Below are positions 95-32,234 of a stretch of DNA of 43,501 nt, in pieces. The stretch spans positions 1 through 43,501 of IMG/VR virus record IMGVR_UViG_3300021399_000121, one strand, 5' to 3'. The DNA is from a virus (taxonomy: Duplodnaviria > Heunggongvirae > Uroviricota > Caudoviricetes). The number at the start of each line of letters is the position of its first letter. Positions within the stretch are counted from its first letter, which is position 1. The position numbers and the translations under genes are program-made. The notes beneath the pieces were generated by a model. It was not told the origin of the DNA. It ran no database searches and was given only the letters and a program-made list of their open reading frames with translations.

Positions 95-589
95 TTAATG
101 AATATCAAATAATTTTACTCTTTTAGGCTTTTCTATCGGAGTTGGACTAATATAAAATACATCAGTGCCTAAATCTAAAGATCCTTTTAAAAGCTCTGCT
201 TGTTGTTGCTCTAATCTCCATTTATTTTGATAATATCTCATTGCATTATCATATACATAACCAACGATTCTAATGCTCCCATGAGATTTACTAACATCAC
301 CATCACTTACATCATACCAATAAACTAAAGTACGATAAATTCCAGTCATTGAACGACCATCTTCAATTAATTCTTTTATTTGTTGATCAATTCTTCGTTT
401 ACTATAACTTGTTCCATATTTATTTTTACAGTATTCGTGAATTTTATTATAATATTCTTCATTTTCCATCTTTTGATCATAACATTTTTTATGATAATAT
501 CTATTACCAATATGCACAAAATCAGGATATTCTTCACGAGAAAAAATTTCTTCACAATATGGACATTTTACATTTGGAAGTTTTGCCAT
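95..589 (-). CDS. Zinc-finger (CPYC...H..C) hypothetical protein, probably replisome-associated
   Basis: 164-aa ORF with an SD (AGGAGA), its own consensus promoter, an N-terminal CxxC...HxxC and a TAA stop. Lies between the ATPase and the putative helicase. Confidence 0.7.
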   Translation of the reverse strand: MAKLPNVKCPYCEEIFSREEYPDFVHIGNRYYHKKCYDQKMENEEYYNKIHEYCKNKYGTSYSKRRIDQQIKELIEDGRSMTGIYRTLVYWYDVSDGDVSKSHGSIRIVGYVYDNAMRYYQNKWRLEQQQAELLKGSLDLGTDVFYISPTPIEKPKRVKLFDIH

Positions 590-619
590 AATATTCTCCT
601 AAAGATTATTCATAATAAT

Positions 620-648
620 ATTATAGCATAAAAAATAACGGCTGTCAA
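620..648 (-). promoter_or_regulatory. Consensus sigma70/sigmaA promoter, TTGACA-17-TATAAT with extended -10 TG
   Basis: Minus strand reads TTGACA (648-643) gccgttattttttatgc TATAAT (625-620). Confidence 0.9.
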
Positions 649-670
649 GAATTACCTTGACAACCGTTAT
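630..670 (-). terminator. Intrinsic terminator after the ATPase gene
   Basis: 15-bp inverted repeat (635-649 / 656-670) with one G-U pair on the minus strand and a 6-nt loop, followed by a T6 tract. Confidence 0.8.
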
Positions 671-678
671 AAAGAAGA

Positions 679-1686
679 TTATAAACCGAGCCCAACTTGT
701 TCAGTTAACTCGTTTACAATTAATTCAAGCTGTTCAGCTTGTTTAGGTGTAGCATCAGAAACTTTCTTTCCTTTGCCAAGATATTTATCAGTAATTTCAA
801 CAATACGTGGTGCCCAATCAGTACCAAATGCATCACCAGTTGCATTTTGAATTTTTTCAACCAATGTATTAAATTGATTCATTAATTCATTAAAATCTAG
901 AATTTGCGGCACTGATTCAACCTTTACTGGAGCATCTGTAACAAACTTGTTATCATATTCTGCAGCTTGTTTATCGATAGCATCACCGATAGCATTTACG
1001 AGATTGTCATAATTAAATTCAATACTATCTGGCGTATATTTAAAACGAGAACCAGCTACAAATCGAGGTGTTTGCCGCATAAATCCAACAGTATGAATAG
1101 TTCCATCTTCCTCTTGGATTGGATGCGCATAAATAATTAAGTCGCTCATGCGGTCTACGATTAGACGAGGACGATTTCCAAGAGTGGGACAAATTTGATT
1201 ATATTCTTTACCATTTTCATCTGTGAATACTTTATCTTGACTATGGCTAATCATAACAAGACCATAACCAATTTGTGGAATTAAACGAAGAGCTTCATCA
1301 AATTCCTTTGATACCATATTATAGCCTTTTCCATAGGCAAGATCAGCGATATTTTCTACACCTTCACGATTACAAATATACTTTTCACAAAGATCATAAG
1401 CAATGTCTACAGTATCTACAATAATATTATCATAGGTTGCGTGACCTTCATCAGTTTTAAGCTGTTTAAGAACACTTTTAAACTCTGCCCATGAATTAAT
1501 TGGAAGAGCCATAATTCCTGGAATGGTAAGATAACCAGCTTCAAAGCCGAGAAGAAGAGCTTTAGAGAACTTTGAGGCTATAGTTGTCTTACCAGTTTTA
1601 GGAGCACCGTATAGAAGTATAGTATAGCCCTTTAGATCTCTTGATACTACGTGCGGTTTAACCGCAAAAATATCAACACTAGCCAT
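679..1686 (-). CDS. Sak4-like / AAA_24-type P-loop ATPase (phage recombination, single-strand annealing)
   Basis: Walker A LLYGAPKTGKTT, Walker B IIVDTVD and a VMISHS motif. 335 aa, directly downstream of the SSB-like gene, the usual Sak4/SSB pairing. Confidence 0.8.
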   Translation of the reverse strand: MASVDIFAVKPHVVSRDLKGYTILLYGAPKTGKTTIASKFSKALLLGFEAGYLTIPGIMALPINSWAEFKSVLKQLKTDEGHATYDNIIVDTVDIAYDLCEKYICNREGVENIADLAYGKGYNMVSKEFDEALRLIPQIGYGLVMISHSQDKVFTDENGKEYNQICPTLGNRPRLIVDRMSDLIIYAHPIQEEDGTIHTVGFMRQTPRFVAGSRFKYTPDSIEFNYDNLVNAIGDAIDKQAAEYDNKFVTDAPVKVESVPQILDFNELMNQFNTLVEKIQNATGDAFGTDWAPRIVEITDKYLGKGKKVSDATPKQAEQLELIVNELTEQVGLGL

Positions 1687-1700
1687 ATACTACCTCCTAA

Positions 1701-2645
1701 TTAAAATTTAAAATTCTTTGCGGCTGTTGGTGATGCAGACTTCACGGTAGTCGCTCCACTAAAAGGAGGATCATCATTAAAAGCATTGTTTGCATTATCT
1801 CTAGATTTTTGATACTCGTCATGATTTGCACGAACTTCTGCGAGATGCTGTTCACGATCTGCCTTACCCTTTGTTACATCTTCTGCAGTCATTATAGATT
1901 CATCACCAAATTCCATTGGATCAACAGATGCACCCTCAATATCCCAAGCACGAAGAGTGCGAGTTGTGATATTTACAGTCGGAGCGCCAAAAGCATTCTC
2001 TGTTTCAGTACGATTTTCAATTGTTGTGCAAACAATATTGCCCCAAACCTTAGTTAGCATTGGTTCACTGATACTAATATCTGCTTTTTCAAAATAACTC
2101 ATACCACCAGCTGTACGAATTGTATATTCTACTGGAAGGAAATCATTTCTGAAATTGAAAACATAACCACGGATGCGACCATAATTATCACCGTTTTCAA
2201 CTTCAACTTCTTGATAACCCTCAATAAGCATATCTGTCTTAAACGTTGCACAACCTACTGTTGCAATATCACCAGTTTCAGGATGAGCAAAACTACCACG
2301 GACACGTTTCGGAGAAGCCATTTCACCTTCACGAGTTACGAAGTCATTACATTCAACATCACCATCAATACGAATTTTTGTCGCTGAAGCTCCATTCATT
2401 TCATAAGTATTATTTTCATTAATAATTTGCTCTAAGAATGAATAAGTCGCATTTGGCTTGCCATTCTTAAAAGTTGGAACTACATACATGAAATTTACTG
2501 GAACGACATTAACGGCATCTACATCTGTAGCAACATTGATAGAACCACCGATATATTCTACACCTTTTCTTGAAACTTTCTTTGCTAGAGTGTGATTAAA
2601 TACCCAACCACGAACATTAACAGAGTTCTCAAAATTATTTTTCAT
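1701..2645 (-). CDS. Putative phage single-stranded DNA-binding protein
   Basis: 314 aa, beta-rich with two similar halves and a low-complexity C-terminal tail ending NFKF. Adjacent to the Sak4-like ATPase. Function inferred from context. Confidence 0.55.
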   Translation of the reverse strand: MKNNFENSVNVRGWVFNHTLAKKVSRKGVEYIGGSINVATDVDAVNVVPVNFMYVVPTFKNGKPNATYSFLEQIINENNTYEMNGASATKIRIDGDVECNDFVTREGEMASPKRVRGSFAHPETGDIATVGCATFKTDMLIEGYQEVEVENGDNYGRIRGYVFNFRNDFLPVEYTIRTAGGMSYFEKADISISEPMLTKVWGNIVCTTIENRTETENAFGAPTVNITTRTLRAWDIEGASVDPMEFGDESIMTAEDVTKGKADREQHLAEVRANHDEYQKSRDNANNAFNDDPPFSGATTVKSASPTAAKNFKF

Positions 2646-2682
2646 GTGTATTTACTCTCTTTCTATTTTTATTTACAATAAT

Positions 2683-2711
2683 ATTATAAAATATTTTATT
2701 ACAGCTGTCAA
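2683..2711 (-). promoter_or_regulatory. Consensus sigma70/sigmaA promoter, TTGACA-17-TATAAT
   Basis: Minus strand reads TTGACA (2711-2706) gctgtaataaaatattt TATAAT (2688-2683), upstream of the SSB-like gene. Confidence 0.9.
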
Positions 2712-2718
2712 TAAAAAT

Positions 2719-2907
2719 TTATTCCTCTTGCCATCCAATAGGATATCTATGTGCAGGAATACAAAAACTTATACCTGTACGACTGTCATCAACCTTAATA
2801 AATTCCGGCCAATCTTCGAGTGCTTTTTCAAATTCATTTTTATCAATATTTGTATCAATAATTAAAATAGGATTGTCTCCTCCATCATATACATAAATTT
2901 TAAGCAT
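2719..2907 (-). CDS. Hypothetical protein, 62 aa
   Basis: ATG at 2907 overlaps the stop of the ThyX-like gene and has an SD (AGGAGA). This start fits better than the track's start at 2931. Confidence 0.65.
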   Translation of the reverse strand: MLKIYVYDGGDNPILIIDTNIDKNEFEKALEDWPEFIKVDDSRTGISFCIPAHRYPIGWQEE

Positions 2908-3544
2908 TAAAATCTCCTGTAATAAACTCATTGTAAGGGAGTGTCTTTATCCAAGAGACAAATTCTTTAGACCATTGCGGCAAACGATGATTTTTACGTT
3001 GACGATACATTGTTGCAAGTACTTCATAATTAAGACAAATAGTTCGTTTTTGTAAAAATGATTCTGGTAGCATTGCCTTTAAAATCTGTTGATAATGCTC
3101 TTTATCTTGATCCGTTACTTCATTGGCACGATCTCGTACAGTTTTAATCACATCAATGTAGTCATTAAATGCAGCTTCAATATCCCAATCTGATCCATTA
3201 AAATTAGGCCACTCAAATTGAGATGCATTAAAATCTTCTTTAAGAATGGTATGCATTGTACTCTCTGAATTTGCAGAAGTTCCAATTTTATAAGTATCCC
3301 ATTCTGACCAGATATACCTTGGCGCAGTAATTTCAACCCAAACAATTACTTGCCGCATCCATTTACGATGTTCGGTTCCACCTTTCCAAAGACTTTTAGC
3401 CAATTTATAATCATTTGGACCTATAGTGACAGAACCTGTTATATTATTTTTAACTGTATCTGCTTTATCATATGATTTAAGAGGATTCCGCATACCTTTT
3501 AATGCAGAATCAAATCCTTGAACATCTAAAGTATTAAATTCCAT
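2900..3544 (-). CDS. ThyX/Thy1-like (FAD-dependent thymidylate synthase fold) phage protein
   Basis: Motifs HRKWMRQVIVWVEITAPRYIWSEWDTYKIGTSANSESTMH, LPESFLQKRTICLNYEVL and RKNHRLPQW correspond to the ThyX layout, but the RHR signature is diverged. Confidence 0.65.
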   Translation of the reverse strand: MEFNTLDVQGFDSALKGMRNPLKSYDKADTVKNNITGSVTIGPNDYKLAKSLWKGGTEHRKWMRQVIVWVEITAPRYIWSEWDTYKIGTSANSESTMHTILKEDFNASQFEWPNFNGSDWDIEAAFNDYIDVIKTVRDRANEVTDQDKEHYQQILKAMLPESFLQKRTICLNYEVLATMYRQRKNHRLPQWSKEFVSWIKTLPYNEFITGDFNA

Positions 3545-4485
3545 TAATTTACTCCAATGGTTTGATTGTAACCATAATCATTTGATTCATATAAATCAAT
3601 ATAAAATGCTTCTTTCTTATTTAACTCTTCTCTTGGACATTCCTCCAATAGTTCAAAAGTAAAGTTTTCAATACCATCTTGTTCCATTGCAGCATATAAT
3701 TTATTATTTTTAGGAGTATCTATACCGCATCCACATTTACAATGATCGCACCAACGTTTATAAATATCAACTGATTGACCAATATAACATTTATTGTCTA
3801 ATATATTAGTAATTTTATAAACGCCGCATTTAGTTCCATTACCAAGGATCATAATGAACTGTTGCTTTGCTAATGGCTGAAAGTATGTTTGCCATATTAA
3901 TTTGGATATGACTCTTGGGTGCGAAAACTGTAAACGAATATTCTGTAATAATTGAATATCTTTTTTATCTTGCGGTGTGATATTTAATTTATATCCATCA
4001 AGTTGATTTTTATCTTGTTGCTGTTTTCTCCATTGTTCAATCGCAGCATGACGAGTTTGTTTTAAAGATTCTAAATCAAATTCAATGATAGCTTTTTCAG
4101 CATCGCATGTTTCTTTAATATATGCTAACTTATCTTTATATTGTTGTGCGGCATTATTATAATCTTCTTGTAATTTAGTTTCATTATCTTTAGCTATTTG
4201 TTTAAGATTGTCAAGATGGTCTTTAGTTTTATCATATTGTTGATTTAAATCTTTAAGTATTTGATCAGTAAAATCAACTTTATGACGTATATCATTAAGA
4301 GTGGTTTTACCCTTATCAATATCGTTATTAATTCTATCTTTTTCATTTACTAAAGTCTCAACAGCACTTTGTAAACGCTCATATTCTTCTTTTTTCTTTG
4401 ATATAAGAGTTAAATATTTTTTACATATTAATGTAGTAATAACTATTATGATTATGGTTATACTATATAATATAATATACTCCAT
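3544..4485 (-). CDS. GIY-YIG endonuclease with N-terminal transmembrane helix and coiled coil
   Basis: Hydrophobic N-terminus (YIILYSITIIIIVITTLIC), about 130 aa of heptad-rich coil, then a C-terminal GVYKITNILDNKCYIGQS...RW...H...E...GYN GIY-YIG core. Confidence 0.8.
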   Translation of the reverse strand: MEYIILYSITIIIIVITTLICKKYLTLISKKKEEYERLQSAVETLVNEKDRINNDIDKGKTTLNDIRHKVDFTDQILKDLNQQYDKTKDHLDNLKQIAKDNETKLQEDYNNAAQQYKDKLAYIKETCDAEKAIIEFDLESLKQTRHAAIEQWRKQQQDKNQLDGYKLNITPQDKKDIQLLQNIRLQFSHPRVISKLIWQTYFQPLAKQQFIMILGNGTKCGVYKITNILDNKCYIGQSVDIYKRWCDHCKCGCGIDTPKNNKLYAAMEQDGIENFTFELLEECPREELNKKEAFYIDLYESNDYGYNQTIGVN

Positions 4486-4552
4486 AATAAAATGGAGGGC
4501 GCCTTATACAGACAACCCTCCTCTCCTTTTAACTCCGTGTATTATTTTTAAT

Positions 4553-4807
4553 TTACTCAGCTGGTTTTTCCATAGCAGGATCAACAGCTAGACCTTCAGG
4601 AGTTAGACGAATAACCTTCTTTTCAATACCCTCAACAACAACACGCTCAGTAATACCCTTCTTCTGTAGACCAGTTGCAGTACCATTGATTTGACGAGGA
4701 TGTAGACCTAGAGCATTTGCTATATCATCAGCGGTGTACTGACCATTAGGATCTGCCTGTAGAAAACGAATAACTGCCTGAGCGTTCTCACTAAAAAGCT
4801 GTGCCAT
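4553..4807 (-). CDS. Winged helix-turn-helix DNA-binding protein
   Basis: 84 aa: TADDIANALGLHPRQINGTATGLQKKGITERV followed by a wing (VIRLTPEG). Has its own promoter. Confidence 0.75.
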   Translation of the reverse strand: MAQLFSENAQAVIRFLQADPNGQYTADDIANALGLHPRQINGTATGLQKKGITERVVVEGIEKKVIRLTPEGLAVDPAMEKPAE

Positions 4808-4903
4808 AATAATAATCTCCTTTTCTTTCTTTAATACTTATTAATAAATATTATGACTTTATTTTTATATCAAAGAAATCCTTTTCTTTCCTTTGATACA
4901 TAT

Positions 4904-4933
4904 ATTATACTATATAATAACTACAATTGTCTA
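4904..4933 (-). promoter_or_regulatory. sigma70/sigmaA-type promoter, TAGACA-18-TATAAT
   Basis: Minus strand TAGACA (4933-4928) and TATAAT (4909-4904), upstream of the wHTH gene. Confidence 0.65.
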
Positions 4934-4962
4934 CAACTATTTTAAACAACAGTAAAAAATAT

Positions 4963-6030
4963 TTAACTAAAAATTTCATCAAGTAAACAATCATTCTCGT
5001 CTTTATCTGGCCGCATACACTCATATACAGGATGCCGCACAGTATAGTCTTTTTTATTAAGACTCATGCAAGAAATTTGAACTACTTTATCAATATAATT
5101 TTCAGGATGTGCGGCCATGTCTTCACGTAATTCATCAGTTAATCCTGATGCTACACGACCAACTTCAATAAGTTCGCCATCTTTATAAGCACCAAGTCGC
5201 ATCCCATTTTTCCAATTATAATAATAATGTTTAGTTACAGGAATTCCATCTTCCCAATAAGGCCAGATGTCTATTTCTTTACCAGTATATTCCCGCATAG
5301 GATCAAGTAATTCCATTACAATTAAATCAACTGAATCAACATGTTCTTTCATTTTAAAACATGTCATAGGACGTTTATCTGGTTCATAAATACTATCAAG
5401 ACGTTTAAAGACTGCTCCTTCACCACCAGCTGCAAATATCTCATTTAATTTTTCTTGAAACGATTTACAACCTATACCAATATTTATGTTTTCTCCAAGG
5501 GTATAGGTTGTAGCCATCTCAATATATTTTTCACCAATAAAGCAATCATAAAGCATATATTCAAGATAATGACCTACACGAGTCTCAAAAGTATTATCAC
5601 AAAGATTATTTCCTGCATACCAGATACAATCAAATATATAATAATGTACCCAATCAGATGCTTCTTGTCGTGCAATGGCATTTTTAGGTAAACAGCCCAT
5701 AATTGAAGTTACATCATTACTGTGGCCACCGGGGATATAAACTTCACCTAGAACGACCGTATCATCAGGAAGATGTTTACGTGCCCATTCTATGATATGC
5801 GGCACATTATCACTTTTTTCCGCAAGCTCTCCTGTTTTTTTACTTTTGGTACGAGAAAAAAGATAAATATGGTCATTATCAATTTTTTCTAGTTGATAAA
5901 AACATCCATCCATTTTTTGCTGCATACACCATTCGCCATTAGCCATTGCAGCATCTACTTTAGCATCACTAAGTTTATTATGATATCGCATAGCTGGAAT
6001 CTGGTGACTACCAGGATATAATTCACTCAT
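4963..6030 (-). CDS. ATP-dependent DNA ligase
   Basis: Motif I QQKMDG, motif III LGEVY, IIIa YYIFDCI, IV EGAVFK, V KMK, and a C-terminal OB domain (GRVASGLT...RHPVY..MRPDK). Confidence 0.93.
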   Translation of the reverse strand: MSELYPGSHQIPAMRYHNKLSDAKVDAAMANGEWCMQQKMDGCFYQLEKIDNDHIYLFSRTKSKKTGELAEKSDNVPHIIEWARKHLPDDTVVLGEVYIPGGHSNDVTSIMGCLPKNAIARQEASDWVHYYIFDCIWYAGNNLCDNTFETRVGHYLEYMLYDCFIGEKYIEMATTYTLGENINIGIGCKSFQEKLNEIFAAGGEGAVFKRLDSIYEPDKRPMTCFKMKEHVDSVDLIVMELLDPMREYTGKEIDIWPYWEDGIPVTKHYYYNWKNGMRLGAYKDGELIEVGRVASGLTDELREDMAAHPENYIDKVVQISCMSLNKKDYTVRHPVYECMRPDKDENDCLLDEIFS

Positions 6031-6080
6031 AATGTTCCTTCCTATAATAAAATAGAGTAAGGTTTTTACCTTACTTTATT

Positions 6081-6109
6081 ATTATATCATTATAAGGTAT
6101 ATATGTCAA
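6081..6109 (-). promoter_or_regulatory. Consensus sigma70/sigmaA promoter for the ligase, embedded in the last codons of the topoisomerase A gene
   Basis: TTGACA (6109-6104), 17-nt spacer ending TGa, TATAAT (6086-6081). A small hairpin AGTAAGGT/ACCTTACT lies at about 6056-6075. Confidence 0.85.
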
Positions 6110-8423
6110 GAACTATTTTAGACGATAATTTTTCACTCGTATCATTCTTAGTCGAGAATGGAATTGTAGATATTTTAATAGAAGAAACATTATTAGATGA
6201 ATGTACTAGGTAGAGTTCATCAGTTATTTTAACACTCATAGCACATAAAATAATATTATTTATTTTAATTTTTTGTCCTTTTCCGCCACGTCCTTGAGAC
6301 TGAAAAACCTTATTAGCGATTATTTTTCCATAGCCACCCTCTTCAAAAATAAAAATGGGATCTTCTTCATTACAAAGAATTGTACTAGCTACATAATCAG
6401 AGTCATTTAAAGTAATACCTTTAACGCCGCCAGCCGTTTTACCTTGTGCATTAATATCATCTGCTGCGAACCTAATACTATAACCATTACCAGTGACAAG
6501 AATAATATTATCTGTGTCATATCCAAGAGAAACAGATAGTAGCTCATCATCATCTTTAATACTTACAGCTTTGATGCCACGAAGATTCTGGGTGTTACTG
6601 ATATAATCTTTTAATTTAGTTTTCTTAACAATACCCTTTTTAGTTGTGAATAAAATAAAGTCTTGTTGCGCTGTATTAGGGACAATGTTTAAGACATATT
6701 CATCTGGTTCAAGTTGAACAATAGAACCTACAGCGGTTCCCTTATCATTCATGCCGCAAGTTTTAATTGTATTTAATTTAATACGGAACATACGGCCTGT
6801 GCTAGTAAATAACATTACCATATCTGCGGTTGTTGTTTTAAATAAATTTATAACCTGCTCTTTACCACGACGATATGATTTAACAGGGATAGATTTAATA
6901 TATCTATCTTTATTCATATAAACAACTACATCTTCAGGTATAGCTGCAACTTTTTCTTTTGTTGCCTTAGTAGTTTTTGCTGCAGCTCGTTCCGCGATAA
7001 CTGTCCTACGTTTATCACTAAATTTATTACTTACCTCTTGGAATCGTTTAACCATCTGTTCTTTAAGTAATTCTTCTGATTCAAGAATTGCTTTAATGAC
7101 AGAAATACGTTCCAGTAATTGAATTTTTTCTTCAATGAATTTATCGACTTCAAGCTTAGCTAATCGAGATAACTTCATATCAAGAATAGCTTTGGCTTGC
7201 TCTTCATTTATAATAAGCAACTTTTGTAAATTAATATTAGCTTCTTTGATGCTAGGAGATTGTTTAATAATCTTAATAACTTCATCAATCTGTGCAATTG
7301 CTTTAATAATTCCTTCAACAATCTTTAAACGATGCTCTAGTTTATTAAGTTCTTGCTGATATAGATTAATATAAACAATTTTTTCATGGTCAAGATGAGC
7401 TTGAAGAGCTTGCCGCCATCCATAAATTTTTGGGAAACGACCATCTTCAAGCATCGTCATATTAACACTATATGATTTTTGTAGTGATGTATTTGCATAT
7501 AATATTTGTTTAATTTTTTCTTGGTTTACAGCTTTATCAAGATAAATTTTAATACAAACATCTTCACCAGTTAAATCATTGATACCAGTAATTCCAATAT
7601 CAGGATTTTCAGATACTAATTTAGCTACCTCGCTGCAAATAGTATTCGTATATACACCATAGGGTAAATCAGTAACGATTAAAGTTTTTTCTTTATCGTC
7701 ATAGTTAATTGTTGCTTGTAATATGCAAGCTTTACCCTTACCTTGTTTAAGACTTGTAGCGACTTCCGTTTTATTAATTAAAGTTGCACCAGTTGCAAAA
7801 TCAGGATAACAAAGAATATCGTCATCAGATACGTTTTCATCTTGGAGAAGTTTAATTAAAGCGTTATTTACTTCACCAAGATTAAATTGTGGAATACTCG
7901 ACGCAAGACCAACTGCGATGCCAGTTGACCCATTTACAATATTATAATATCCAAGAGAAGAAAGAACTCGTGGATATTGTTCTGTATCATCATAATTATC
8001 TATCCATTCATTAATAGTATATTTATTAGTATCTTGTAATAAATAATTTGATATTGAAGATAATCTTGATGATGTATAACGACTTGCGGCCCAGTTACCT
8101 GTTTCAGTGAGTGTACCATATGAACCTTCAATTTCAATTAGAGGATAGCGCATGGCAAATGGCTGGCCTGATCGCATAATAATACCTTCACAAGACGCAT
8201 CACCATGAATATAGAAACGCATTGCAGACCCAATTGCTTTAAGAGTCTTTTTAAAAGGTTTATCAGATGTGAATTTATCTGTAAAAAGACTATAATACAC
8301 TTGTCTTGCAGATGGTTTAATGCAGTCTCGCACATCTACGAGTGCACGAGATTGAATAACTGCGCCTGCGTATTGAGTAAAAGATTCTTTAATTACATCT
8401 TCTAATTCTAATACTTCATTCAT
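6090..8423 (-). CDS. gyrA: Type IIA DNA topoisomerase subunit A (GyrA/ParC family) with beta-pinwheel C-terminal domain
   Basis: DCIKPSARQ, YIHGD, catalytic AASRY, NGSTGIAVGLAS, PDFATG, ILDMKLSRL and repeated CTD blades (GRMF, GIVKK, GYSIRF, GGVKG). Gyrase versus topo IV identity is not resolved. Confidence 0.93.
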   Translation of the reverse strand: MNEVLELEDVIKESFTQYAGAVIQSRALVDVRDCIKPSARQVYYSLFTDKFTSDKPFKKTLKAIGSAMRFYIHGDASCEGIIMRSGQPFAMRYPLIEIEGSYGTLTETGNWAASRYTSSRLSSISNYLLQDTNKYTINEWIDNYDDTEQYPRVLSSLGYYNIVNGSTGIAVGLASSIPQFNLGEVNNALIKLLQDENVSDDDILCYPDFATGATLINKTEVATSLKQGKGKACILQATINYDDKEKTLIVTDLPYGVYTNTICSEVAKLVSENPDIGITGINDLTGEDVCIKIYLDKAVNQEKIKQILYANTSLQKSYSVNMTMLEDGRFPKIYGWRQALQAHLDHEKIVYINLYQQELNKLEHRLKIVEGIIKAIAQIDEVIKIIKQSPSIKEANINLQKLLIINEEQAKAILDMKLSRLAKLEVDKFIEEKIQLLERISVIKAILESEELLKEQMVKRFQEVSNKFSDKRRTVIAERAAAKTTKATKEKVAAIPEDVVVYMNKDRYIKSIPVKSYRRGKEQVINLFKTTTADMVMLFTSTGRMFRIKLNTIKTCGMNDKGTAVGSIVQLEPDEYVLNIVPNTAQQDFILFTTKKGIVKKTKLKDYISNTQNLRGIKAVSIKDDDELLSVSLGYDTDNIILVTGNGYSIRFAADDINAQGKTAGGVKGITLNDSDYVASTILCNEEDPIFIFEEGGYGKIIANKVFQSQGRGGKGQKIKINNIILCAMSVKITDELYLVHSSNNVSSIKISTIPFSTKNDTSEKLSSKIVLDIYTL

Positions 8424-8431
8424 ATTTTCTC

Positions 8432-10288
8432 CTACTCACGCACGGTCGAAAAATCGATTTCATTAAATACAAATTCTTTGCGGGCTATACCAGAGCTACC
8501 CATCAACGCTTTAAGTAAATTAATTGCATCTTCTGTTGGATTAAGAATATCCATTTTTTGATTTTTACCAAACATAGAAGCTTTAGCTTGATCCGCTGAA
8601 AGACTACCGAGACCTTTGTTGCGTTGTACTTCACTAGTTATTTTACCACGAACAGCATCCATTTCTTCATCTGTAAAATAATATTGCTCACCTTGTTTAG
8701 TTTTAACAATATAAAGTGGTGAACGCAACCAACATAAGCGTTGTTCTTCAATAAACTCAGGACAAAAATGCTGTAGAGCTGTTGCAATTAAAAGACCAAT
8801 ATGATAACCATCACTATCAGAGTCAGTACAAATTGCAACACGACCATATCGTAAATCGGATGGGTCATATGCGCCAGGTGTAATATTTAATGCTTTAAGA
8901 AGTAATTGAATTTCTTCATTCTTTTCTAATTTCTCTTTACTATTGGAAAAAGCATTAATTAATTTACCGCGCAACATTAGAATACCATATTTTTGTCTGT
9001 CACGGGCAACAGCCATTGATGCACCAGCTGATAATCCTTCTACTAAAAGGAGTGTGCTATCTTCACCAAGATATTCTGCATCTTTTAGTTTATCTGGATG
9101 AAGAATCTTAACTTTACTAGATGACTTTTTAGTTTTATTAGCTTTAACTGCGGCACGTGCTTTTTTAGCAGCTTCCGCAGCCTTGCGTGCAATTAATGCT
9201 TTTTCAATAATATTTTTTCCATCAGTAACATTGTTGTCGAGCCAAATCTCCAACTGATCACTAAGAATTGAAGATATAAAAGCAGTATCAATCTTAGTAA
9301 TATTGCTTTTAACTTGTGCATCATAGGCAACATTTTCAGCGGTAATATTACAAACAAGAACAAGTCCTTCTTGTAATGCCGCACCTTCAAGATTTTTATC
9401 CTTTTCTTTTAATATGCCTTGCTCTTTTGCCCATTTATTTAAAGTACGAGTAATACATGATTTAATACTTGTGATATGCGGTCCTGCAGTAGTTAAACCG
9501 CAATTAACATAGGGAACAATTATTGAAGATGACTTATCACAATAAGTTAAAGCTAAATCAAGTTTTTGTTTATCTCTTTGCTCTTGGATAATAAAATTAT
9601 TATTTAAAATAGATATTCCATTTCCAAGAGAACGAGTTAATAAATCTTGAATACCATCATGTTCAATTTTATCACCATTAAACATAATAGTTAATCCTGG
9701 ACAAAGACAGGTAATATCTTCACAGAAATTGCGGAGTTTAGTTTCATTTACTTTTGGTGAAGTAAAAAATTTTTCACTCGGTTGAAAGACTACCCGAGTA
9801 CCATTTTTAATATTAGAATTATCATATAACTCTCTTTTTTCAAATATTCCTTCTTTAAAAACAACTGTTTCAGAATGTCCGTTTTTAGTACTTGTTACTA
9901 CTAACCAATGAGAAAGAAAATTCGTTAATTTTGCTCCGATACCATTAAGTCCAATTGCTGTACCTTCATATACGCCGTCATTACGATATTTACCAGAAGT
10001 ATTAATAACGTCAAAAGAAGCTTGAAGAACAGTTTCTCCATCTTCACGAAAAACGTTAATTGGGAAACCTTGTCCTTTATCTTCTATAACAATGCTTCCA
10101 TCTTCTATTAAAGCAATAGAAATTATATTTCCATGACCAATATTATATTCATCAATAGCATTACCCAGAATTTCAATTGCAAGTTGAGTTGCATCTGAAG
10201 TATCTCCGCAATACATTCCTGGACGTAAACGTACATGCTCTAAAGGAGATAATGATTCAATACTATCTTCTTTATATAAATTATCCAA
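8432..10288 (-). CDS. gyrB: Type IIA DNA topoisomerase subunit B (GyrB/ParE family)
   Basis: EHVRLRPGMY, GHKL motifs EILGNAIDE, DKGQGFP and GLNGIG, TOPRIM motifs EGLSA, LRGKL and DSDSDG, then RNKGLG. TTG start with SD GGAGGT. Confidence 0.95.
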   Translation of the reverse strand: MDNLYKEDSIESLSPLEHVRLRPGMYCGDTSDATQLAIEILGNAIDEYNIGHGNIISIALIEDGSIVIEDKGQGFPINVFREDGETVLQASFDVINTSGKYRNDGVYEGTAIGLNGIGAKLTNFLSHWLVVTSTKNGHSETVVFKEGIFEKRELYDNSNIKNGTRVVFQPSEKFFTSPKVNETKLRNFCEDITCLCPGLTIMFNGDKIEHDGIQDLLTRSLGNGISILNNNFIIQEQRDKQKLDLALTYCDKSSSIIVPYVNCGLTTAGPHITSIKSCITRTLNKWAKEQGILKEKDKNLEGAALQEGLVLVCNITAENVAYDAQVKSNITKIDTAFISSILSDQLEIWLDNNVTDGKNIIEKALIARKAAEAAKKARAAVKANKTKKSSSKVKILHPDKLKDAEYLGEDSTLLLVEGLSAGASMAVARDRQKYGILMLRGKLINAFSNSKEKLEKNEEIQLLLKALNITPGAYDPSDLRYGRVAICTDSDSDGYHIGLLIATALQHFCPEFIEEQRLCWLRSPLYIVKTKQGEQYYFTDEEMDAVRGKITSEVQRNKGLGSLSADQAKASMFGKNQKMDILNPTEDAINLLKALMGSSGIARKEFVFNEIDFSTVRE

Positions 10289-10290
10289 TC

Positions 10291-10494
10291 TTACCTCCCA
10301 TCATCTTCATATCTCCAATGATAATCATTAAGTATCTCAGCATATTGTTTAACTAATACAGCCATCTCAAGCATATTCTTTTTAATTATACGCCAAGCTT
10401 CTTCTTCAGTATTATCATCTTGAGCATTATAAATCATATATTGTATATCGTCTAAAGTGTAATATTTATAATTACCAATTTGTCCATTAGGCAT
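10291..10494 (-). CDS. Hypothetical protein, 67 aa
   Basis: SD (GAAAGGA), a promoter upstream, and a stop adjacent to the gyrB RBS. Confidence 0.65.
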   Translation of the reverse strand: MPNGQIGNYKYYTLDDIQYMIYNAQDDNTEEEAWRIIKKNMLEMAVLVKQYAEILNDYHWRYEDDGR

Positions 10495-10516
10495 AATTAT
10501 CCTTTCTATTTATATA

Positions 10517-10546
10517 ATTATACCATATAAAAATAGCAGATGTCAA
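10517..10546 (-). promoter_or_regulatory. sigma70/sigmaA promoter, TTGACA-18-TATAAT with extended -10, for the topoisomerase operon
   Basis: TTGACA (10546-10541), TATAAT (10522-10517). Confidence 0.8.
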
Positions 10547-10565
10547 GAAAATCTCAACATCTGCT
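10529..10565 (-). terminator. Intrinsic terminator whose 3' arm contains the -35 of the next promoter
   Basis: 14-bp stem (10535-10548 / 10552-10565) with two G-U pairs on the minus strand, then ATTTTT. Confidence 0.75.
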
Positions 10566-10572
10566 TAAACAT

Positions 10573-11058
10573 TTAATCCTGCAGTTCGGCCGCACGTTTC
10601 TCTTCAAGTTTCTTATTTAGTTGTTTACGACGTTCGATCATGCGGGATGTGTATTCTGAGAATGAATCTTTCATATATTTATATTGAGCATAAGCTTTTT
10701 CATATTCTTTTTGAGCTAATTCATACTGATAATAAATGTCATCAAGAACAATACCAAATTCATATTGTTTAGTTGCTTTATATTTAGTATGAAGAGTTCT
10801 ATGAATATTAAGAATACCATGAGCACGTTCTCTTAAAATTTTAGCTTTTGCATGAGCAATTTCAATATCACATTTACGCTCAGCAAAACGATAGCCATCC
10901 CAATCATTAATATTAGAATAATCTTGCGGGCATGGTTTAACAGAACAAGTAAAAATTCCATATTTACTTGATTTCGTTACATAATAGACAGGAATTCTAA
11001 TACCGCCTATAATAATTTTATCTTTCCAAGAGTTTAAAACTTTACTATGTTTACTCAT
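10573..11058 (-). CDS. Hypothetical protein, 161 aa, helical C-terminal half
   Basis: ORF overlapping the upstream gene's stop and followed by a terminator. No recognisable family. Confidence 0.65.
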   Translation of the reverse strand: MSKHSKVLNSWKDKIIIGGIRIPVYYVTKSSKYGIFTCSVKPCPQDYSNINDWDGYRFAERKCDIEIAHAKAKILRERAHGILNIHRTLHTKYKATKQYEFGIVLDDIYYQYELAQKEYEKAYAQYKYMKDSFSEYTSRMIERRKQLNKKLEEKRAAELQD

Positions 11059-11248
11059 GATATTTCACTTTCTCTGTTTCATGACCATATTCTTTAATCA
11101 TAAAAGGTATTTTGCGGCTATACTGAGGATATATTTTTTTAGCTACATCACAAGCCATATCAATAGCTTCTTTTGGACTATTTGCATCAAAATTACCATA
11201 AGTAATTGTTTTTCCATTTTCAGATTGAGATATACGATATTTAGTCAT
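11051..11248 (-). CDS. Hypothetical protein, 65 aa; first gene of the leftward unit
   Basis: SD (AAAGGA) and a promoter directly upstream. Confidence 0.65.
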   Translation of the reverse strand: MTKYRISQSENGKTITYGNFDANSPKEAIDMACDVAKKIYPQYSRKIPFMIKEYGHETEKVKYHE

Positions 11249-11288: not shown

Positions 11289-11376
11289 AGTATAACATTT
11301 AATTTAACAATTGTCAAATAATTTTTTTTACTTATTCAAAATTTTATTTGACGATTGTATATAATTATGTTATATT
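11289..11376. promoter_or_regulatory. Divergent promoter pair at the strand switch
   Basis: Leftward: TTGACA (11317-11312)-17-TATACT (11294-11289). Rightward: TTGACG (11348-11353)-17-TATATT (11371-11376). Both have an extended -10 TG. Confidence 0.8.
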
Positions 11377-11402: not shown

Positions 11403-11660
11403 ATGCCTGCATGGTTAATATATGGAAAAGTTATTAAAAAGATGCCTCTTTCAGATGGAAATGGTGGAAAGAAAATTGTAGAACCGCAAACAACTTTTCG
11501 TGCTCTTAATTATCAAGGACGGAGAGTATCTAAATTAGCTGATGCGGGAAAATATTATGAAAAAGAAATGGCTCAAAAAATTGTAGATAAAGCTCAAGCA
11601 TATTGGGATAAACAAGGTTATGGCGATTGTGTCGCATATGAAATTAGAAAGAGCAAATAA
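11403..11660 (+). CDS. Hypothetical protein, 85 aa
   Basis: SD (GAAAGGA), first gene after the rightward promoter, TAA stop overlapping the next ATG. Confidence 0.7.
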   Translation: MPAWLIYGKVIKKMPLSDGNGGKKIVEPQTTFRALNYQGRRVSKLADAGKYYEKEMAQKIVDKAQAYWDKQGYGDCVAYEIRKSK

Positions 11661-11929
11661 TGTCATATAGATTAGAATATATGGGGCCAACACAAACTTT
11701 TAAAGCTGCACCTTATAATAAAGCGAATATTAATGAATCAATGATTGATATAAAACTTGAAGAAGGAATGCAATATTTAGTTGAATTACAACAAGATGGT
11801 CCTGTAACTATTATTAATGGACAATATCTAATTGACCCTAATACTACTATTTGGATAATCTTTCCTTCTTTTGGAGGGTGTATTCCATATTCTCCAGAAG
11901 CTATTTTAAAACAATGGAGAATGGTATAG
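11660..11929 (+). CDS. Hypothetical protein, 89 aa
   Basis: Coupled TAATG start; TAG stop overlaps the next gene's GTG. Confidence 0.7.
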   Translation: MSYRLEYMGPTQTFKAAPYNKANINESMIDIKLEEGMQYLVELQQDGPVTIINGQYLIDPNTTIWIIFPSFGGCIPYSPEAILKQWRMV

Positions 11930-12228
11930 TGAATGAAAAAGATTATTTTTATATTACATTAAATTGTTGCAATTGTGATTATTCAATGTGTCGTTTAGGA
12001 GATATCATTCATAATGATAAAGACGGATGTGTGCGGCAAGTTGATGAAGATTTATTCATTGAATATTATCATCAATTAAAAGAAGTTTGACCATTTGTTT
12101 TAAAATCACAGAATAAAAAAAATATTGATAAAGAATATGAAAAAACAATGCAGATATTAGATAAAGTATATAATAGTCCATGTACTAGACAATATGGTAA
12201 AGGATTTAAAGTTATAGTTGGGATATAG
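11929..12228 (+). CDS. Cys-rich hypothetical protein, 99 aa, one in-frame TGA (12088) read as Trp
   Basis: GTG start with SD GGAGA. Reading through the TGA extends the frame to TAG 12226-12228, one base before the next ATG, closing an otherwise unexplained 140-bp gap. Confidence 0.65.
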
Positions 12229-12229
12229 A

Positions 12230-13039
12230 ATGTTATTTATAACAGGTGATACTCATGGTAGAGTTATTGAGCGTTTTTCGTTTAGACAAAATGCTACACT
12301 TAGACAATTAACAAATAAGGATACTGTAATTCAATTAGGTGATTTTGGTCAACCGTTTGGACCTACTACTTATAAAGAAGCTGAATATGTTTTTAAGTTT
12401 TTAAATGATAAACCTTGAACAACTATTGTTATTGGTGGTAATCATGATGATTATGATTATTGGCAGTCATGTCCTCAGATAGAGCTGTTTGGTGGAAAAG
12501 CACGTCAAGCTACCTTTTATGGAAAAAATTTTTCAGTGTTTTTTATTGATGAAATTACAATTTTAAATGTTGATAATCAAAATATTCTTTGTATCCCATG
12601 TGCAGAATCACACGATGCGGACATTTTATTAGACCCTAATGAAATTGGTTTTAAACGTAAGCAAGCTACTTTACAAAAACAATATCAATGGTTTAGGGTC
12701 GTTGGCCGTTCATGGTGGCCGCAAGAAAAAATGGACGTCCAAAAGAATGCAGAATTTATAGAACATCATATGAATGAACATTTTGATTTTATCCTGACGC
12801 ATGATGCTCCTGCGTTGATAAATTCGTGGTTTAAAAGACCAGAAGATTCTGCAAGAAAAATCTCTACTGCAGGACAATTATTTTTAGAAGAGTTGCGGAG
12901 AAATCTTGATTTCGATGTATGGTTTCATGGTCATTTTCATTTTACAGGCTTTTGGAATGAGTTATATGATGAACGAATTTGCGGAGTATATTCTGAAATT
13001 ATTCAACTTATGAATGAGAATTCCTTGACGATTGTATAG
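12230..13039 (+). CDS. Calcineurin-like metallophosphoesterase, 269 aa, one in-frame TGA (12416) = Trp
   Basis: The full motif set lies in one frame only if the TGA is read through: GDTHG, LGDFG, KP(W)TTIVIGGNHD, THDAP, WFHGHFH. The track splits it into 12218-12418 and 12536-13039. Confidence 0.9.
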
Positions 13040-13054
13040 TAAATATGTTATAAT
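13025..13054 (+). promoter_or_regulatory. sigma70/sigmaA promoter, TTGACG-18-TATAAT with extended -10
   Basis: Shares the 14-mer TTGACGATTGTATA with the promoter at 11348. Confidence 0.75.
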
Positions 13055-13078
13055 ATAATTAAAGAGGAAGGAGATAAT

Positions 13079-13276
13079 ATGTTGAATAATGTCTTTAGTT
13101 ATTGTTCTTGGCTTGAGAATGATATTTCTAGTAATATTATTGATTTTGTTGATAGATATAAATATACTTGTATTCCTAAATGGAAAGTTGATAATTTTCT
13201 TAAAGAATATCATATAAATTATAATGAACTTCCACAATATTTAAAAGATAAACTTGATGAAATTGATGTATACTGA
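13079..13276 (+). CDS. Hypothetical protein, 65 aa if TGA stops translation; 99 aa (to 13378) if TGA=Trp
   Basis: Strong SD (AGGAAGGAG). The only convincing gene in the window whose standard-code stop is TGA. Confidence 0.7.
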   Translation: MLNNVFSYCSWLENDISSNIIDFVDRYKYTCIPKWKVDNFLKEYHINYNELPQYLKDKLDEIDVY

Positions 13277-13287
13277 GGAGCCATTGC

Positions 13288-14769
13288 ATGCAACCTTTTG
13301 ATTGTTTGACGGAAAATGATAAAGAAATTGTGCGGCAGTGGTGTATTAATTATGGAAATGCAGAACCGCAAAGTATAGAAAAAATTTTAGCGACTTGGAA
13401 TAAAAATAAACGAACTTTGTTTAGAGCTTTTGGAAGGAAGCTTCAAATTAGTTTTCCTATTCATCAAAAAGTAAATTCAAGTTATCGTCATTCTAAATGG
13501 AGAAATTTATATTCTCCATTTATTATTTATGATAAAAATGATTTGCAAAATTTTAAATATGACCCACGAAATCATATTTTTATTAATGATCTTGTAGAGT
13601 GGATGCGTGATGATTTAATTGATATTTTACCAGTTTCAATGTTAAAAGGTATTTTAGAATATACTAAATATTGTTATGTTGAAACTGGTAAAACAAATGA
13701 TGATAAATGTTTCGCTGGAGGTGCTAAAGGAAAAGTTTTAAAAATTCCAAAAGGAACAAAGATTATGCGCGCGATTCGTAAAGTTCTTGAATATTACTCT
13801 TTTCCTCACATGGATTCTTTTAATGAATGGCGTGATGATATTAGTGTAATTAATACTGATAAAGAAATCAATGCAGAACTTGTTCTTAGTATTAATCCTG
13901 TTGATTTTATTACTATGAGTGATAATAGAAGCGGATGGACTTCTTGTATGTCATGGATTGATAATGGCGCATATTCAACTGGTACTATTGAAATGTTAAA
14001 TAGTAATGTTGCGGTAGTAGCTTATTTACGTAATCCGCAATCTTTTACGTATAATGACCTTGATATACCTAATAAATCTTGGCGTACTTTAGTTTTTGTA
14101 CATAAAGACATTCTTTTAGTTGGAAAGCATTATCCATATCAAAGTGAAGCTTTAGCTAAAATTGTCCTTGATAAAGTTAGAGAAATTGTAAAAAATACTG
14201 TTGGTTGGAAATATCATTATCATAATCAGCTATATCGTGACATGATACGTAGTTATGATAATAATTATGTTAGGGATAAAGATTACTTTCAACGATTGAA
14301 TGATGGTCATAAAATATATGTTTATACAAATATAATGTATCATGATATTATTGAGGATCATTCTACTGATTATTGGTGTTGTCGTAATAAGGTTAAAAAG
14401 AATCTGTATTTAAATCTATCAGGCCCAGCAACATGTATGTGCTGTGGAGAACCAATAGATAAAGATTTTACGAATAATTTTTCTACTTCAATTAAATATT
14501 GTAAAGATTGTTGTGATAAATATTATTGTCGTGGATGCGGTTTAGTTAGTGTTGAACACTTTAAACATAAGATTATATTTAAAGAAAAAGTTTATGGGGA
14601 AGTGTATACTCATTATGGTCATCCAGATTGTATCATTGATAATTTTTTATGGGATAGTAAAGATGGTTATTGTGTAGCGAAAAATAGATTATATGATGTA
14701 GATAAAACTAGATATAAACCATTAACAAGAGAAAGGCTACTTTTTAATGAAGTTTGCGGCTCCGTATAA
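13288..14769 (+). CDS. Phage hypothetical protein, 493 aa, with C-terminal CxxC zinc-ribbon-like motifs
   Basis: SD GAGGAG. Motif LSINPVDFITMSDN..GWTSCMSW resembles a recurrent phage family (from memory). CMCC, CKDCC and CRGC near the C-terminus. All Trp codons are TGG. Confidence 0.75.
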   Translation: MQPFDCLTENDKEIVRQWCINYGNAEPQSIEKILATWNKNKRTLFRAFGRKLQISFPIHQKVNSSYRHSKWRNLYSPFIIYDKNDLQNFKYDPRNHIFINDLVEWMRDDLIDILPVSMLKGILEYTKYCYVETGKTNDDKCFAGGAKGKVLKIPKGTKIMRAIRKVLEYYSFPHMDSFNEWRDDISVINTDKEINAELVLSINPVDFITMSDNRSGWTSCMSWIDNGAYSTGTIEMLNSNVAVVAYLRNPQSFTYNDLDIPNKSWRTLVFVHKDILLVGKHYPYQSEALAKIVLDKVREIVKNTVGWKYHYHNQLYRDMIRSYDNNYVRDKDYFQRLNDGHKIYVYTNIMYHDIIEDHSTDYWCCRNKVKKNLYLNLSGPATCMCCGEPIDKDFTNNFSTSIKYCKDCCDKYYCRGCGLVSVEHFKHKIIFKEKVYGEVYTHYGHPDCIIDNFLWDSKDGYCVAKNRLYDVDKTRYKPLTRERLLFNEVCGSV

Positions 14770-15637
14770 ATTAGATTTTAATTGTCCAATTGATTATGAA
14801 AATATAGATGAATTTAATATTAATTTTACTGAATATAGTTCTTTTGAAGAACTTAGAAAATTTATTAAATTATATCCTTCACATAGAATAAATATTGAAT
14901 TTTCTAAAGAAAAGTATAATTCAGAAAATATTATAAATGTTTGTAGTGATTTTGATAATGTTTATGTTCGTATTCATCAATGGGAAATTCCATATTTAAA
15001 GTCTTATGAAGAAAAAGGCGTTAAATATTTTTTTGATAATAGTATGCCAATATATTCATATTCTCTGCTAGAATGGGCATTGATGCAAAAAACAACGGGG
15101 ATTTATATTACGGATGATTTAACATATAATCTTGAAGAAGTTTATAAACAATGTAATAATCAAAATATTGAATTAAGGATTATTCTTAATAGACTACCTT
15201 CAATGAATTCATTGGTATCAACATGTCCAACTGTTCAAGCTTATCGGCCGCAAGACTATAATTTTTTAAGTAAATATTATGCTGTTGGTGAGTTTGATTG
15301 TGGAGAAAAATATGATTGGAATAAAGCAGAAGTGCTATATCAAAGATGGTTTATTGATCATTATTGGAGTGATGATTTAAATTTCTTAAATCAAGATATT
15401 AATATACCATATCCAACAGAATCAATTCCTCCAGAATTGACAAGAATACGTTCTTTTTGTAGACATCGTTGTACTATGTCCGCGGAGAATATATGCTCTA
15501 AATGCAGAAGGTTTGTTCTTTTGGGATATCGAAACAAAAATAATAATTTAGTATATACTGATCCAGAAAATGGGTTACCTTCTCTTGAAGAGATGGTTGA
15601 TTCTATAATTGTATCAAAAAACAATAATGTTGAATAA
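14747..15637 (+). CDS. Hypothetical protein, possibly peptidase-U32-like TIM barrel with a C-terminal Cys cluster
   Basis: 296-aa ORF overlapping the previous gene, with CRHRC...CSKC near the C-terminus. The family call is weak. Confidence 0.5.
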   Translation: MKFAAPYKLDFNCPIDYENIDEFNINFTEYSSFEELRKFIKLYPSHRINIEFSKEKYNSENIINVCSDFDNVYVRIHQWEIPYLKSYEEKGVKYFFDNSMPIYSYSLLEWALMQKTTGIYITDDLTYNLEEVYKQCNNQNIELRIILNRLPSMNSLVSTCPTVQAYRPQDYNFLSKYYAVGEFDCGEKYDWNKAEVLYQRWFIDHYWSDDLNFLNQDINIPYPTESIPPELTRIRSFCRHRCTMSAENICSKCRRFVLLGYRNKNNNLVYTDPENGLPSLEEMVDSIIVSKNNNVE

Positions 15638-15640
15638 TTA

Positions 15641-15660
15641 AAAATTATATATAATGAAAA
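15641..15660 (+). promoter_or_regulatory. Candidate late-promoter motif (AAAATTATATATAATGAAAA)
   Basis: 18/20 identity to the intergenic motif at 31895-31914. No properly spaced -35. Confidence 0.45.
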
Positions 15661-15694
15661 GATATTTTTTTAAATAGATAAGGAGATTTTTACG

Positions 15695-16108
15695 ATGATG
15701 GATTCTTATAATGCTTCTTGTTATGTTGAAAATAATGATGGGCAATATCATATGGAATGTGAAATTAATTATGATGGTAAAGAAATTTATTCAGATTATG
15801 ATGGAAATAATTTCGTCAATGGCTTAAATACTATTATGGATGATCTTGAAGCACAAATTGCGCTTATTCCAGAACAAGAAGAAGAAGAAGAAGAGAAGTC
15901 TCTGGAAGAACAAATCATCTGTTTAACTGAAAAAATTAATCAATTACAAGATGAAAAGAAAAGTTTAAATGAGGAAATTAAGAAATTAAAGAGTAATCAA
16001 CAAAAACAAAGAAAAGAAGAGCCTATCTTTAATAGTAATATTTTTAGAGTAGATACGTTTAATGATTTTATTAATGAAGTAATAAAAAATTATGCGATAA
16101 AGGAATAA
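15695..16108 (+). CDS. Acidic coiled-coil hypothetical protein, 137 aa
   Basis: SD (AAGGAG), poly-Glu linker, C-terminal coiled coil. Confidence 0.7.
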   Translation: MMDSYNASCYVENNDGQYHMECEINYDGKEIYSDYDGNNFVNGLNTIMDDLEAQIALIPEQEEEEEEKSLEEQIICLTEKINQLQDEKKSLNEEIKKLKSNQQKQRKEEPIFNSNIFRVDTFNDFINEVIKNYAIKE

Positions 16109-16111
16109 AAT

Positions 16112-16351
16112 ATGAATTTTGTCTATTATATTATTAAAAAAAATGATAACATTATTATTGATATGGCAGACGATATGGTTAATGCAGTTAAAAAAGCTCA
16201 ACAATTAGAGGGAGCTTATTTAATTATGCAAGGATGTATCATTACAGAAATTGGTCAAGATATTGCAGACCTTGAAGATAAAGATAATGATAATATAGAC
16301 TTTGATAATGAAGATGATTATATAGAAACTGATGTAGTTGAAAATGATTAA
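16112..16351 (+). CDS. Acidic hypothetical protein, 79 aa
   Basis: SD (AAGGA) in the end of the previous gene; TAA stop. Confidence 0.65.
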   Translation: MNFVYYIIKKNDNIIIDMADDMVNAVKKAQQLEGAYLIMQGCIITEIGQDIADLEDKDNDNIDFDNEDDYIETDVVEND

Positions 16352-16370
16352 TAAATAGGAGATGATATTG

Positions 16371-16877: not shown

Positions 16878-16909
16878 ATAGCTCGCATTAATTTGCGAGC
16901 TATTTTTTT
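16878..16909 (+). terminator. Intrinsic terminator closing the holin unit
   Basis: ATAGCTCGCA-ttaatt-TGCGAGCTAT followed by a T run. Confidence 0.9.
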
Positions 16910-24985: not shown

Positions 24986-24998
24986 AGGATGATGATAT

Positions 24999-32232: not shown

Positions 32233-32234
32233 AA

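Follow-up and report, generated by a model that had tools for sequence, protein, structure and literature searches.

We analyzed a window of 43,501 nucleotides from a large uncultured virus of the Caudoviricetes (IMG/VR record IMGVR_UViG_3300021399_000121, positions 1 to 43,501). The window opens a single virus contig of 107,501 bp (34% GC) and covers its first 43.5 kb. Its minus strand carries, at positions 95-11248, a block of 13 genes for replication and recombination, eight of which are small or unnamed. No TGA codon occurs in frame in this block, whereas TGA is the preferred codon for tryptophan (Trp) in the late genes. Codon comparisons with related genomes indicate that purifying selection keeps TGA out of the block, and that drift, composition and lack of time do not. 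In our judgement the partition quite probably reflects timed recoding, in which the block would be kept free of TGA for translation by the host and the TGA-rich genes would be translated later by means of a suppressor tRNA with the anticodon UCA, tRNA(UCA). The mechanism is a published model and not new; the observation is real and highly significant.

In-frame TGA in the replication block and in the late genes

Across the 13 open reading frames (ORFs) of the block there are 39 TGG codons and no in-frame TGA, and the stops are 12 TAA and one TAG. This recount agrees exactly with the original prediction, which was made from the sequence alone and had described all 13 minus-strand genes as intact in the standard code. 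Because every stop is unchanged when the block is read with genetic code 4 (13 of 13, with three ORFs gaining a short extension upstream of the start) and the larger genes cover their family profiles from end to end, the zero count is neither circular nor produced by calling the ORFs with the standard code; that codes 11 and 4 give identical readings of the block had likewise been foreseen. TGA is common out of frame in the same ORFs, with 31 occurrences in frame +1 and 265 in frame +2 (296 in all), and therefore the block DNA itself does not avoid the trinucleotide. From positional base frequencies, about 31 in-frame TGA and about 9 TGG codons are expected in the block. The late genes starting in the window contain 109 TGA and 30 TGG codons (Fisher test against the block, 1e-20), and all recoded genes of the contig contain 147 and 57, respectively (6e-19), in line with the late preference of about 3:1 that had been proposed. 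A further claim, that the block lacks TGA both as a sense codon and as a stop, stands firmly for its first half; the second half is true, and 0 of 13 is not significant alone (P about 0.4), because a standard-code relative rarely ends its genes with TGA (5 of 95 long ORFs).

The recoded region was compared under both codes and with five useful IMG/VR contigs that serve as relatives (G001-G005; the present contig is G000). Between positions 16970 and 53979, code 11 yields dozens of fragments and code 4 yields eight long ORFs. The late ORFs of the window under code 4 encode proteins of 2671, 468, 608 and 1125 amino acids (aa) and a 2868-aa tape measure protein (32618-41224, PF10145), and a recoded 1863-aa fibre protein with collagen repeats begins within the window. 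A second recoded stretch, at 102.7-106.8 kb of the contig, comprises the large terminase (TerL) gene and two genes upstream of it. At 14 of the 15 TGA columns in TerL and in two neighbouring proteins of 365 and 403 aa, at least one standard-code homologue has W, Y or F; moreover, 26 of 37 aligned TGA codons are TGG in the standard-code G005. These alignments indicate that TGA means Trp in the recoded genes of this phage. A reading as Gly (code 25) was rejected, since the aligned residues are W, Y or F. When TGA and TGG were counted gene by gene and set against function, a check suggested in the original prediction, structural, packaging and lysis genes were found to be recoded and replication genes to be standard. 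Most genes at 54-102 kb of the contig are also TGA-free. As a consequence for annotation, gene calling in this phage lineage must use code 4.

The contig lacks a terminal repeat, and its final 170 bases are the start of the portal protein gene. A circular contig was rejected on these two grounds, the missing repeat and the truncation of the portal gene at the right end. CheckV gives a completeness of 74%. G001 overlaps both contig ends at 95.5-98.9% identity and places 28,648 bp between the right end and window position 1, from which the complete genome would be about 136 kb and the contig about 79% of it. Both G001 (46.9 kb) and G002 (64.8 kb) are near-identical to the present contig (94-99%), and G003 (140.7 kb), whose proteins are 83-100% identical, is a recoded sister genome. 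Roughly 60 metagenomic relatives were also found. G004 (140.2 kb, terminase identity 60%) entered the tRNA search only. G005 (142.6 kb) is a standard-code cousin with direct terminal repeats and a terminase identity of 57%; tRNA(tca) is absent from it, and the gene for its tape measure protein (2793 aa) uses 26 TGG and no TGA.

In G001, the stretch absent from the contig contains, in order, head genes, tRNA(UCA), a GH25 endolysin gene with 12 TGA and 3 TGG codons, and the remaining minus-strand replication genes, namely those for a RuvC-like resolvase, NrdD, the alpha subunit of DNA polymerase III (Pol III alpha), RecJ, primase and DnaB. From the Pol III alpha gene (19 TGG, no TGA) through the first gene of the block, 19 consecutive genes of G001 hold 81 TGG and no TGA. 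The RuvC-like resolvase gene, which lies at the far end of the block on the minus strand, contains 5 TGA and no TGG in G001 and 4 TGA and 1 TGG in G003, and a perfect early-type promoter is found upstream of it. The sign of the GC skew flips at about 11.3 kb.

Selection against TGA in the block

Recent transfer of the block and codon bias, which the original prediction had set against its own reading, are not borne out. Of the codons for Lys, Glu, Gln, Leu and Arg, 79-92% end in A in the block, as do 83-90% in the late genes, and the GC content at third codon positions is similar. Because the block favours A-ending codons as strongly as the late genes do, codon composition does not explain the absence of TGA. 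The gene order of the block is conserved in G005, with identities of 32-63%, and the late genes fall in the same range; with its synteny kept and a divergence about like that of the late genes, the block is not explained by recent transfer. Judged from these genome comparisons, the block is ancestral and syntenic.

The comparison with the recoded sister G003 bears on whether TGA has simply had no time to enter the block. At all 36 conserved Trp positions of the block both genomes have TGG, without a single swap. By comparison, the late genes have 65 positions with TGA in both, 9 with TGG in both and 32 swaps (32 of 106, 30%). Synonymous swaps between A and G at Lys, Glu and Gln occur at 17.9% in the block and 22.4% in the late genes, and about 45% of the G-ending codons of the block are A-ending in G003. 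On this basis about 16 of the 36 conserved Trp codons would be expected to have changed from TGG to TGA; none has, with a probability of about 5e-10. The notion of neutral drift, with a recent recoding whose TGA codons have yet to reach slowly evolving replication genes, draws on the amino-acid identity to G003, which is 92% for block proteins and 62% for tail proteins. It is nevertheless highly improbable, given the near-equal synonymous swap rates and the 16 or so changes expected against none seen. Moreover, because 65 TGA positions are common to both genomes, the recoding is older than the split from G003. We conclude from these codon counts that it is purifying selection that keeps TGA out of the block. 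The present genome thus offers a clean quantitative case of selection barring a reassigned stop codon from early genes, with a recoded sister and a standard-code cousin as controls.

Suppressor tRNA, promoters and the host

No tRNA(UCA) was found among the 19 tRNAs of the present contig. A tRNA(UCA) of 97 nt with G73 is present in G001, G002 and G003, and the G001 locus lies in the stretch that is absent from the present contig. Its anticodon stem covaries, with compensatory changes between G001 and G003. The tRNA has an 8-bp acceptor stem and, besides G73, a long variable arm, whose loop carries a Trp-anticodon-like U-CCA-A/C motif in G001, G002 and G003, the G002 sequence being otherwise quite different; this loop might supply the CCA identity element for tryptophanyl-tRNA synthetase (TrpRS). 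A Hirsh-type UGA reader was also considered, as the tRNA-Trp(CCA) of the contig (68392-68468) has U11:A24 and an extra base before the anticodon stem. This link was dropped because U11:A24 is also found in the standard-code G005.

Perfect TTGACA-N16-18-TATAAT sites number 15 in the contig, with 0.14 expected per strand. Four of them fall between genes of the block, on the strand that encodes it, and the rest lie at 54-102 kb among genes that are not recoded; no such site was found in the recoded stretches of the contig. In the late region of G001 and G003, the sole perfect promoter is upstream of a 166-aa TGA-free gene and tRNA(UCA). A "code-change operon" formed by these two was not upheld for the 166-aa gene, which has no family match, a low-confidence all-helical predicted fold (predicted local distance difference test, 67) and counterparts in more distant relatives without an adjacent tRNA; it is probably a tail-module gene. 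The promoter partition fits early transcription of the block by the host polymerase.

In the proposed scheme, host RNA polymerase would transcribe the block from its perfect sigma-A-type promoters right after infection, and the transcripts would be translated by unmodified host machinery in which release factor 2 (RF2) stops at UGA, so that TGA would be purged by purifying selection. The phage tRNA(UCA), made from its own perfect host-type promoter, would accumulate and allow full-length translation of the TGA-containing genes, with TGA read as Trp in the tail, packaging, lysis and some other genes. TGA could thus lock the translation of late or dangerous proteins. The original prediction had suggested that the block is expressed before a switch, in a host whose RF2 terminates at UGA. 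The evidence for selection, the four promoters and the tRNA(UCA) of near-identical genomes all lend support to this; the timing of expression, the activity of the promoters, the competition with RF2 and the genetic code of the host are the parts of the scheme that we infer.

Several points weigh against timed recoding. The early status of the block is deduced from gene function and consensus promoters, and the suppressor tRNA is seen in relatives, not on the present contig. No gene for a release factor (RF1, RF2) or TrpRS was found in G000-G003 that would account for how RF2 is outcompeted. With its host-type promoter, tRNA(UCA) may already be produced when infection begins, and this would blur the distinction between before and after the switch. 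Not every gene outside the late set is TGA-free: a Rep-like ORF (88151-88957) contains one TGA, and the eight-ORF unit that adjoins the block on the plus strand has a lone TGA at codon 67 of a metallophosphoesterase gene (12218-13039), which is TGG in G003. On the side of the host, no match to a clustered regularly interspaced short palindromic repeats (CRISPR) spacer was obtained when the first 20 kb of the window was searched against the metagenome-assembled genome (MAG) RUG14215 and 300 genomes of its family, and the one link to Ruminococcus as host was rejected, as it is one of binning only, through a contig that is itself a fragment of a related phage.

Two other arrangements were weighed with timed recoding. 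The tRNA could be present from the outset, without a timed switch, and UGA decoding could be slow or incomplete against RF2, so that enzymes needed fast and at exact length would avoid TGA, and the late genes would put up with slow decoding or make use of it. The perfect host-type promoter that precedes tRNA(UCA) in both relatives, like those of early genes, speaks for this, as does the failure to find a phage RF1, RF2 or TrpRS that would sharpen a switch. We regard it as unlikely: recoding is heaviest in the most abundant virion proteins and in the endolysin, where 12 of 15 Trp codons are TGA, which would be odd if TGA were merely inefficient, and the avoidance is absolute rather than graded (0 of 39 in the block, 0 of 81 over the 19 genes of G001). 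The resolvase gene points to a lock that works gene by gene and not on blocks as a whole. Because this gene, with all five Trp codons as TGA, sits in an otherwise TGA-free block with early-type promoters, and because the tRNA has the sole perfect host-type promoter of the late region, it is conceivable, if still rather doubtful, that recoding forms a lock on single genes independent of transcription units, in which the tRNA would be a slowly filling timer and not a late switch. If this is true, the codon alone would restrain harmful proteins that are transcribed early.

The phage is best explained as a large SPbeta-like siphovirus whose host is an anaerobic Gram-positive bacterium with a cell wall. 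Like the SPbeta-like siphoviruses Geobacillus virus E3, Enterococcus phage H1 and Lactococcus phage 949, it has a YonF-type large terminase (31-45% identity) and a very long tape measure, and its relatives have a YomU-type tail tube; those phages differ in that their terminase is annotated as intact with the standard code in GenBank. Wherever the host of a terminase relative is known, it belongs to the Bacillota (Enterococcus, Bacillus, Geobacillus, Lactococcus and Clostridium). At 68745-71914 of the contig are TGA-free genes for an LPXTG-anchored protein (590 aa) that contains Cna-B and SpaA pilin-like domains, and for a TagF-like glycerophosphotransferase; both are possibly surface-modifying moron genes. 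Further pointers to a cell wall and to anaerobic life come from the gap as seen in G001, namely the GH25 muramidase and the anaerobic ribonucleotide reductase NrdD. The sole genome match to the LPXTG gene is a 2.2-kb contig (CADBQS010000048.1) of the public rumen MAG "uncultured Ruminococcus sp. RUG14215". It is 81% identical to the phage over its entire length, that is, a phage fragment binned with a bacterial genome. In the MAG, prfB is intact and rpoB contains no in-frame stops, and its link to the phage is this mis-binned fragment. Predicting the host from CRISPR spacers, as had been proposed, was carried out with the first 20 kb of the window against this MAG and its family and gave AT-rich chance matches only, without repeat arrays.

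To our knowledge, the known code-4 bacteria are wall-less Mollicutes or insect endosymbionts. A host that itself uses code 4, with a block that is TGG-only through recent acquisition or expression-linked codon bias, would agree with the AT-rich genome (34% GC) and with the lack of a suppressor tRNA on the present contig. Phages of such hosts would use TGA in all gene classes, which is not so here, and the block shares the A-ending bias of the late genes and, in relatives, keeps its synteny at a divergence about like theirs. Near-identical genomes encode their own tRNA(UCA), and the terminase relatives infect Bacillota genera. In addition, the LPXTG protein, the TagF-like enzyme and the GH25 muramidase fit only a walled Gram-positive host and do not match the wall independence of Mycoplasma and Spiroplasma phages. 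Because the phage carries these cell-wall genes, we infer that a code-4 host is very unlikely, in agreement with the argument made against it in the original prediction; the explanation as a whole has scant probability.

Known recoded phages and other features of the genome

The same pattern of TGA recoding, with structural and lysis genes set apart from replication genes, was described by Borges et al. 2022 (bioRxiv 10.1101/2021.08.26.457843), who also reported close standard-code relatives with very few TGA stops, detected tRNA(UCA) in about one third of TGA-recoded genomes, and proposed that recoding prevents premature expression of late genes, above all of lysis. The present phage resembles their "Agate" and "Jade" gut and rumen phages of Firmicutes in several respects: structural and lysis genes read TGA as Trp and the replication genes use the standard code; the GC content is low, the genome falls in the 127-200 kb size class and, as seen in its relatives, tRNA(UCA) lies close to the lysis cassette; TGA stops are few in a close relative with the standard code; and the endolysin is the most strongly recoded. 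It differs in that the RF1 or TrpRS "code-change operon" was not found in the present lineage. The likeness to the Agate clade in size, code, habitat hints and gene pattern was compared by description only. The exact partition of perfect host-type promoters with the TGA-free genes and the recoded resolvase at the end of the replication block are not noted in the text of Borges et al. that was consulted. These two points and the explicit test of selection against drift are small additions to the published model; the pattern was previously published for gut and rumen phages, and no new question is opened.

A related large terminase (43% identity) is found in phAss-1 of the proposed Phassvirus (PMC10607447), also a large gut phage with a recoded stop in late genes, suppressor tRNAs and no dedicated aminoacyl-tRNA synthetase. 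In phAss-1, however, TAG is reassigned to Gln (code 15) with tRNA(CUA), whereas the present phage reassigns TGA to Trp. The crAss-like and Lak phages (Yutin et al. 2021, PMC7886860; Peters et al. 2022, PMC9523058) are similar in using the standard code early and a recoded one late, and recoded translation with code 15 has been confirmed by proteomics. They belong to a different virus order, have Bacteroidota hosts and mostly reassign TAG. The features of the window and the tRNA(UCA) locus are listed in Table 1.

Table 1. Coordinates of block genes, putative regulatory sites, neighbouring units and tRNA(UCA); positions refer to the window unless G001 is named
Feature	Position	Strand	Remarks
164-aa gene, function unassigned (phrog_4680)	95..589	-	2 TGG, 0 TGA, TAA stop
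Sak4-like / AAA_24 ssDNA-annealing ATPase	679..1686	-	2 TGG, 0 TGA
314-aa gene, function unassigned (phrog_2367)	1701..2645	-	3 TGG, 0 TGA
70-aa gene	2719..2931	-	2 TGG, 0 TGA
214-aa gene, function unassigned (phrog_6721)	2900..3544	-	9 TGG, 0 TGA
313-aa protein, C-terminal GIY-YIG homing-endonuclease domain	3544..4485	-	3 TGG, 0 TGA
84-aa gene	4553..4807	-	no Trp codons
ATP-dependent DNA ligase	4963..6030	-	7 TGG, 0 TGA
Type II topoisomerase A (GyrA/ParC-like) subunit	6090..8423	-	3 TGG, 0 TGA
Type II topoisomerase B (GyrB-like) subunit	8432..10288	-	TTG start, TAG stop; 4 TGG, 0 TGA
67-aa gene	10291..10494	-	2 TGG, 0 TGA
161-aa gene, no family match	10573..11058	-	2 TGG, 0 TGA
65-aa gene, first of the minus-strand block	11051..11248	-	no Trp codons
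TTGACA-17-TATAAT promoter-like site	620..648	-	intergenic; 16-bp hairpin 635-670 overlaps the -35 box
TTGACA-17-TATAAT promoter-like site	2683..2711	-	perfect match
TTGACA-17-TATAAT promoter-like site	6081..6109	-	perfect; precedes the ligase gene
TTGACA-18-TATAAT promoter-like site	10517..10546	-	perfect; 14-bp hairpin 10535-10565 overlaps the -35 box
Putative divergent promoter region	11289..11376	both	minus: TTGACA-17-TATACT with extended TG; plus: TTGACG-17-TATATT with TG
TGA-poor unit, eight ORFs	11403..16682	+	27 TGG, 1 TGA
Terminator-like hairpin, 10-bp stem then T run	16878..16903	+	follows the TGA-poor unit and precedes the first recoded giant ORF
Recoded late (tail) genes	16970..43501	+	open only with TGA as a sense codon; 109 TGA, 30 TGG
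tRNA(UCA)	G001 28991-29087	-	adjoins the GH25 endolysin gene

Several other features were observed outside the window. G001 carries an 888-bp insertion inside its large terminase gene (42805-43693, corresponding to about 105376 of the present contig, from which it is absent). The insertion contains a 207-aa ORF with 2 TGA codons and is likely a mobile intron or homing-endonuclease element. Just upstream of the tRNA array of the present contig is a full-length ROOL RNA (RF03087, 331 bits) at 64746-65322. The nineteenth tRNA (66827-66897) was detected by Rfam only (42 bits) and missed by ARAGORN; its anticodon, assigned by hand, is TTG (Gln), and its anticodon stem has a C31-A39 mismatch. Adjoining the ROOL RNA and the tRNA array, a set of RNA-repair genes (59528-64493) encodes two RNA ligases, a polynucleotide kinase and a phosphoesterase, and looks like a counter-measure to host anticodon nucleases. 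One of the RNA ligase genes (62092-63369) probably ends at a TGA, with a second TGA two codons on and a TAA ten codons after the first; its orthologue in G003 has a TAA or TAG stop near the corresponding point. Suppression of TGA would add an 11-residue tail to this RNA ligase.

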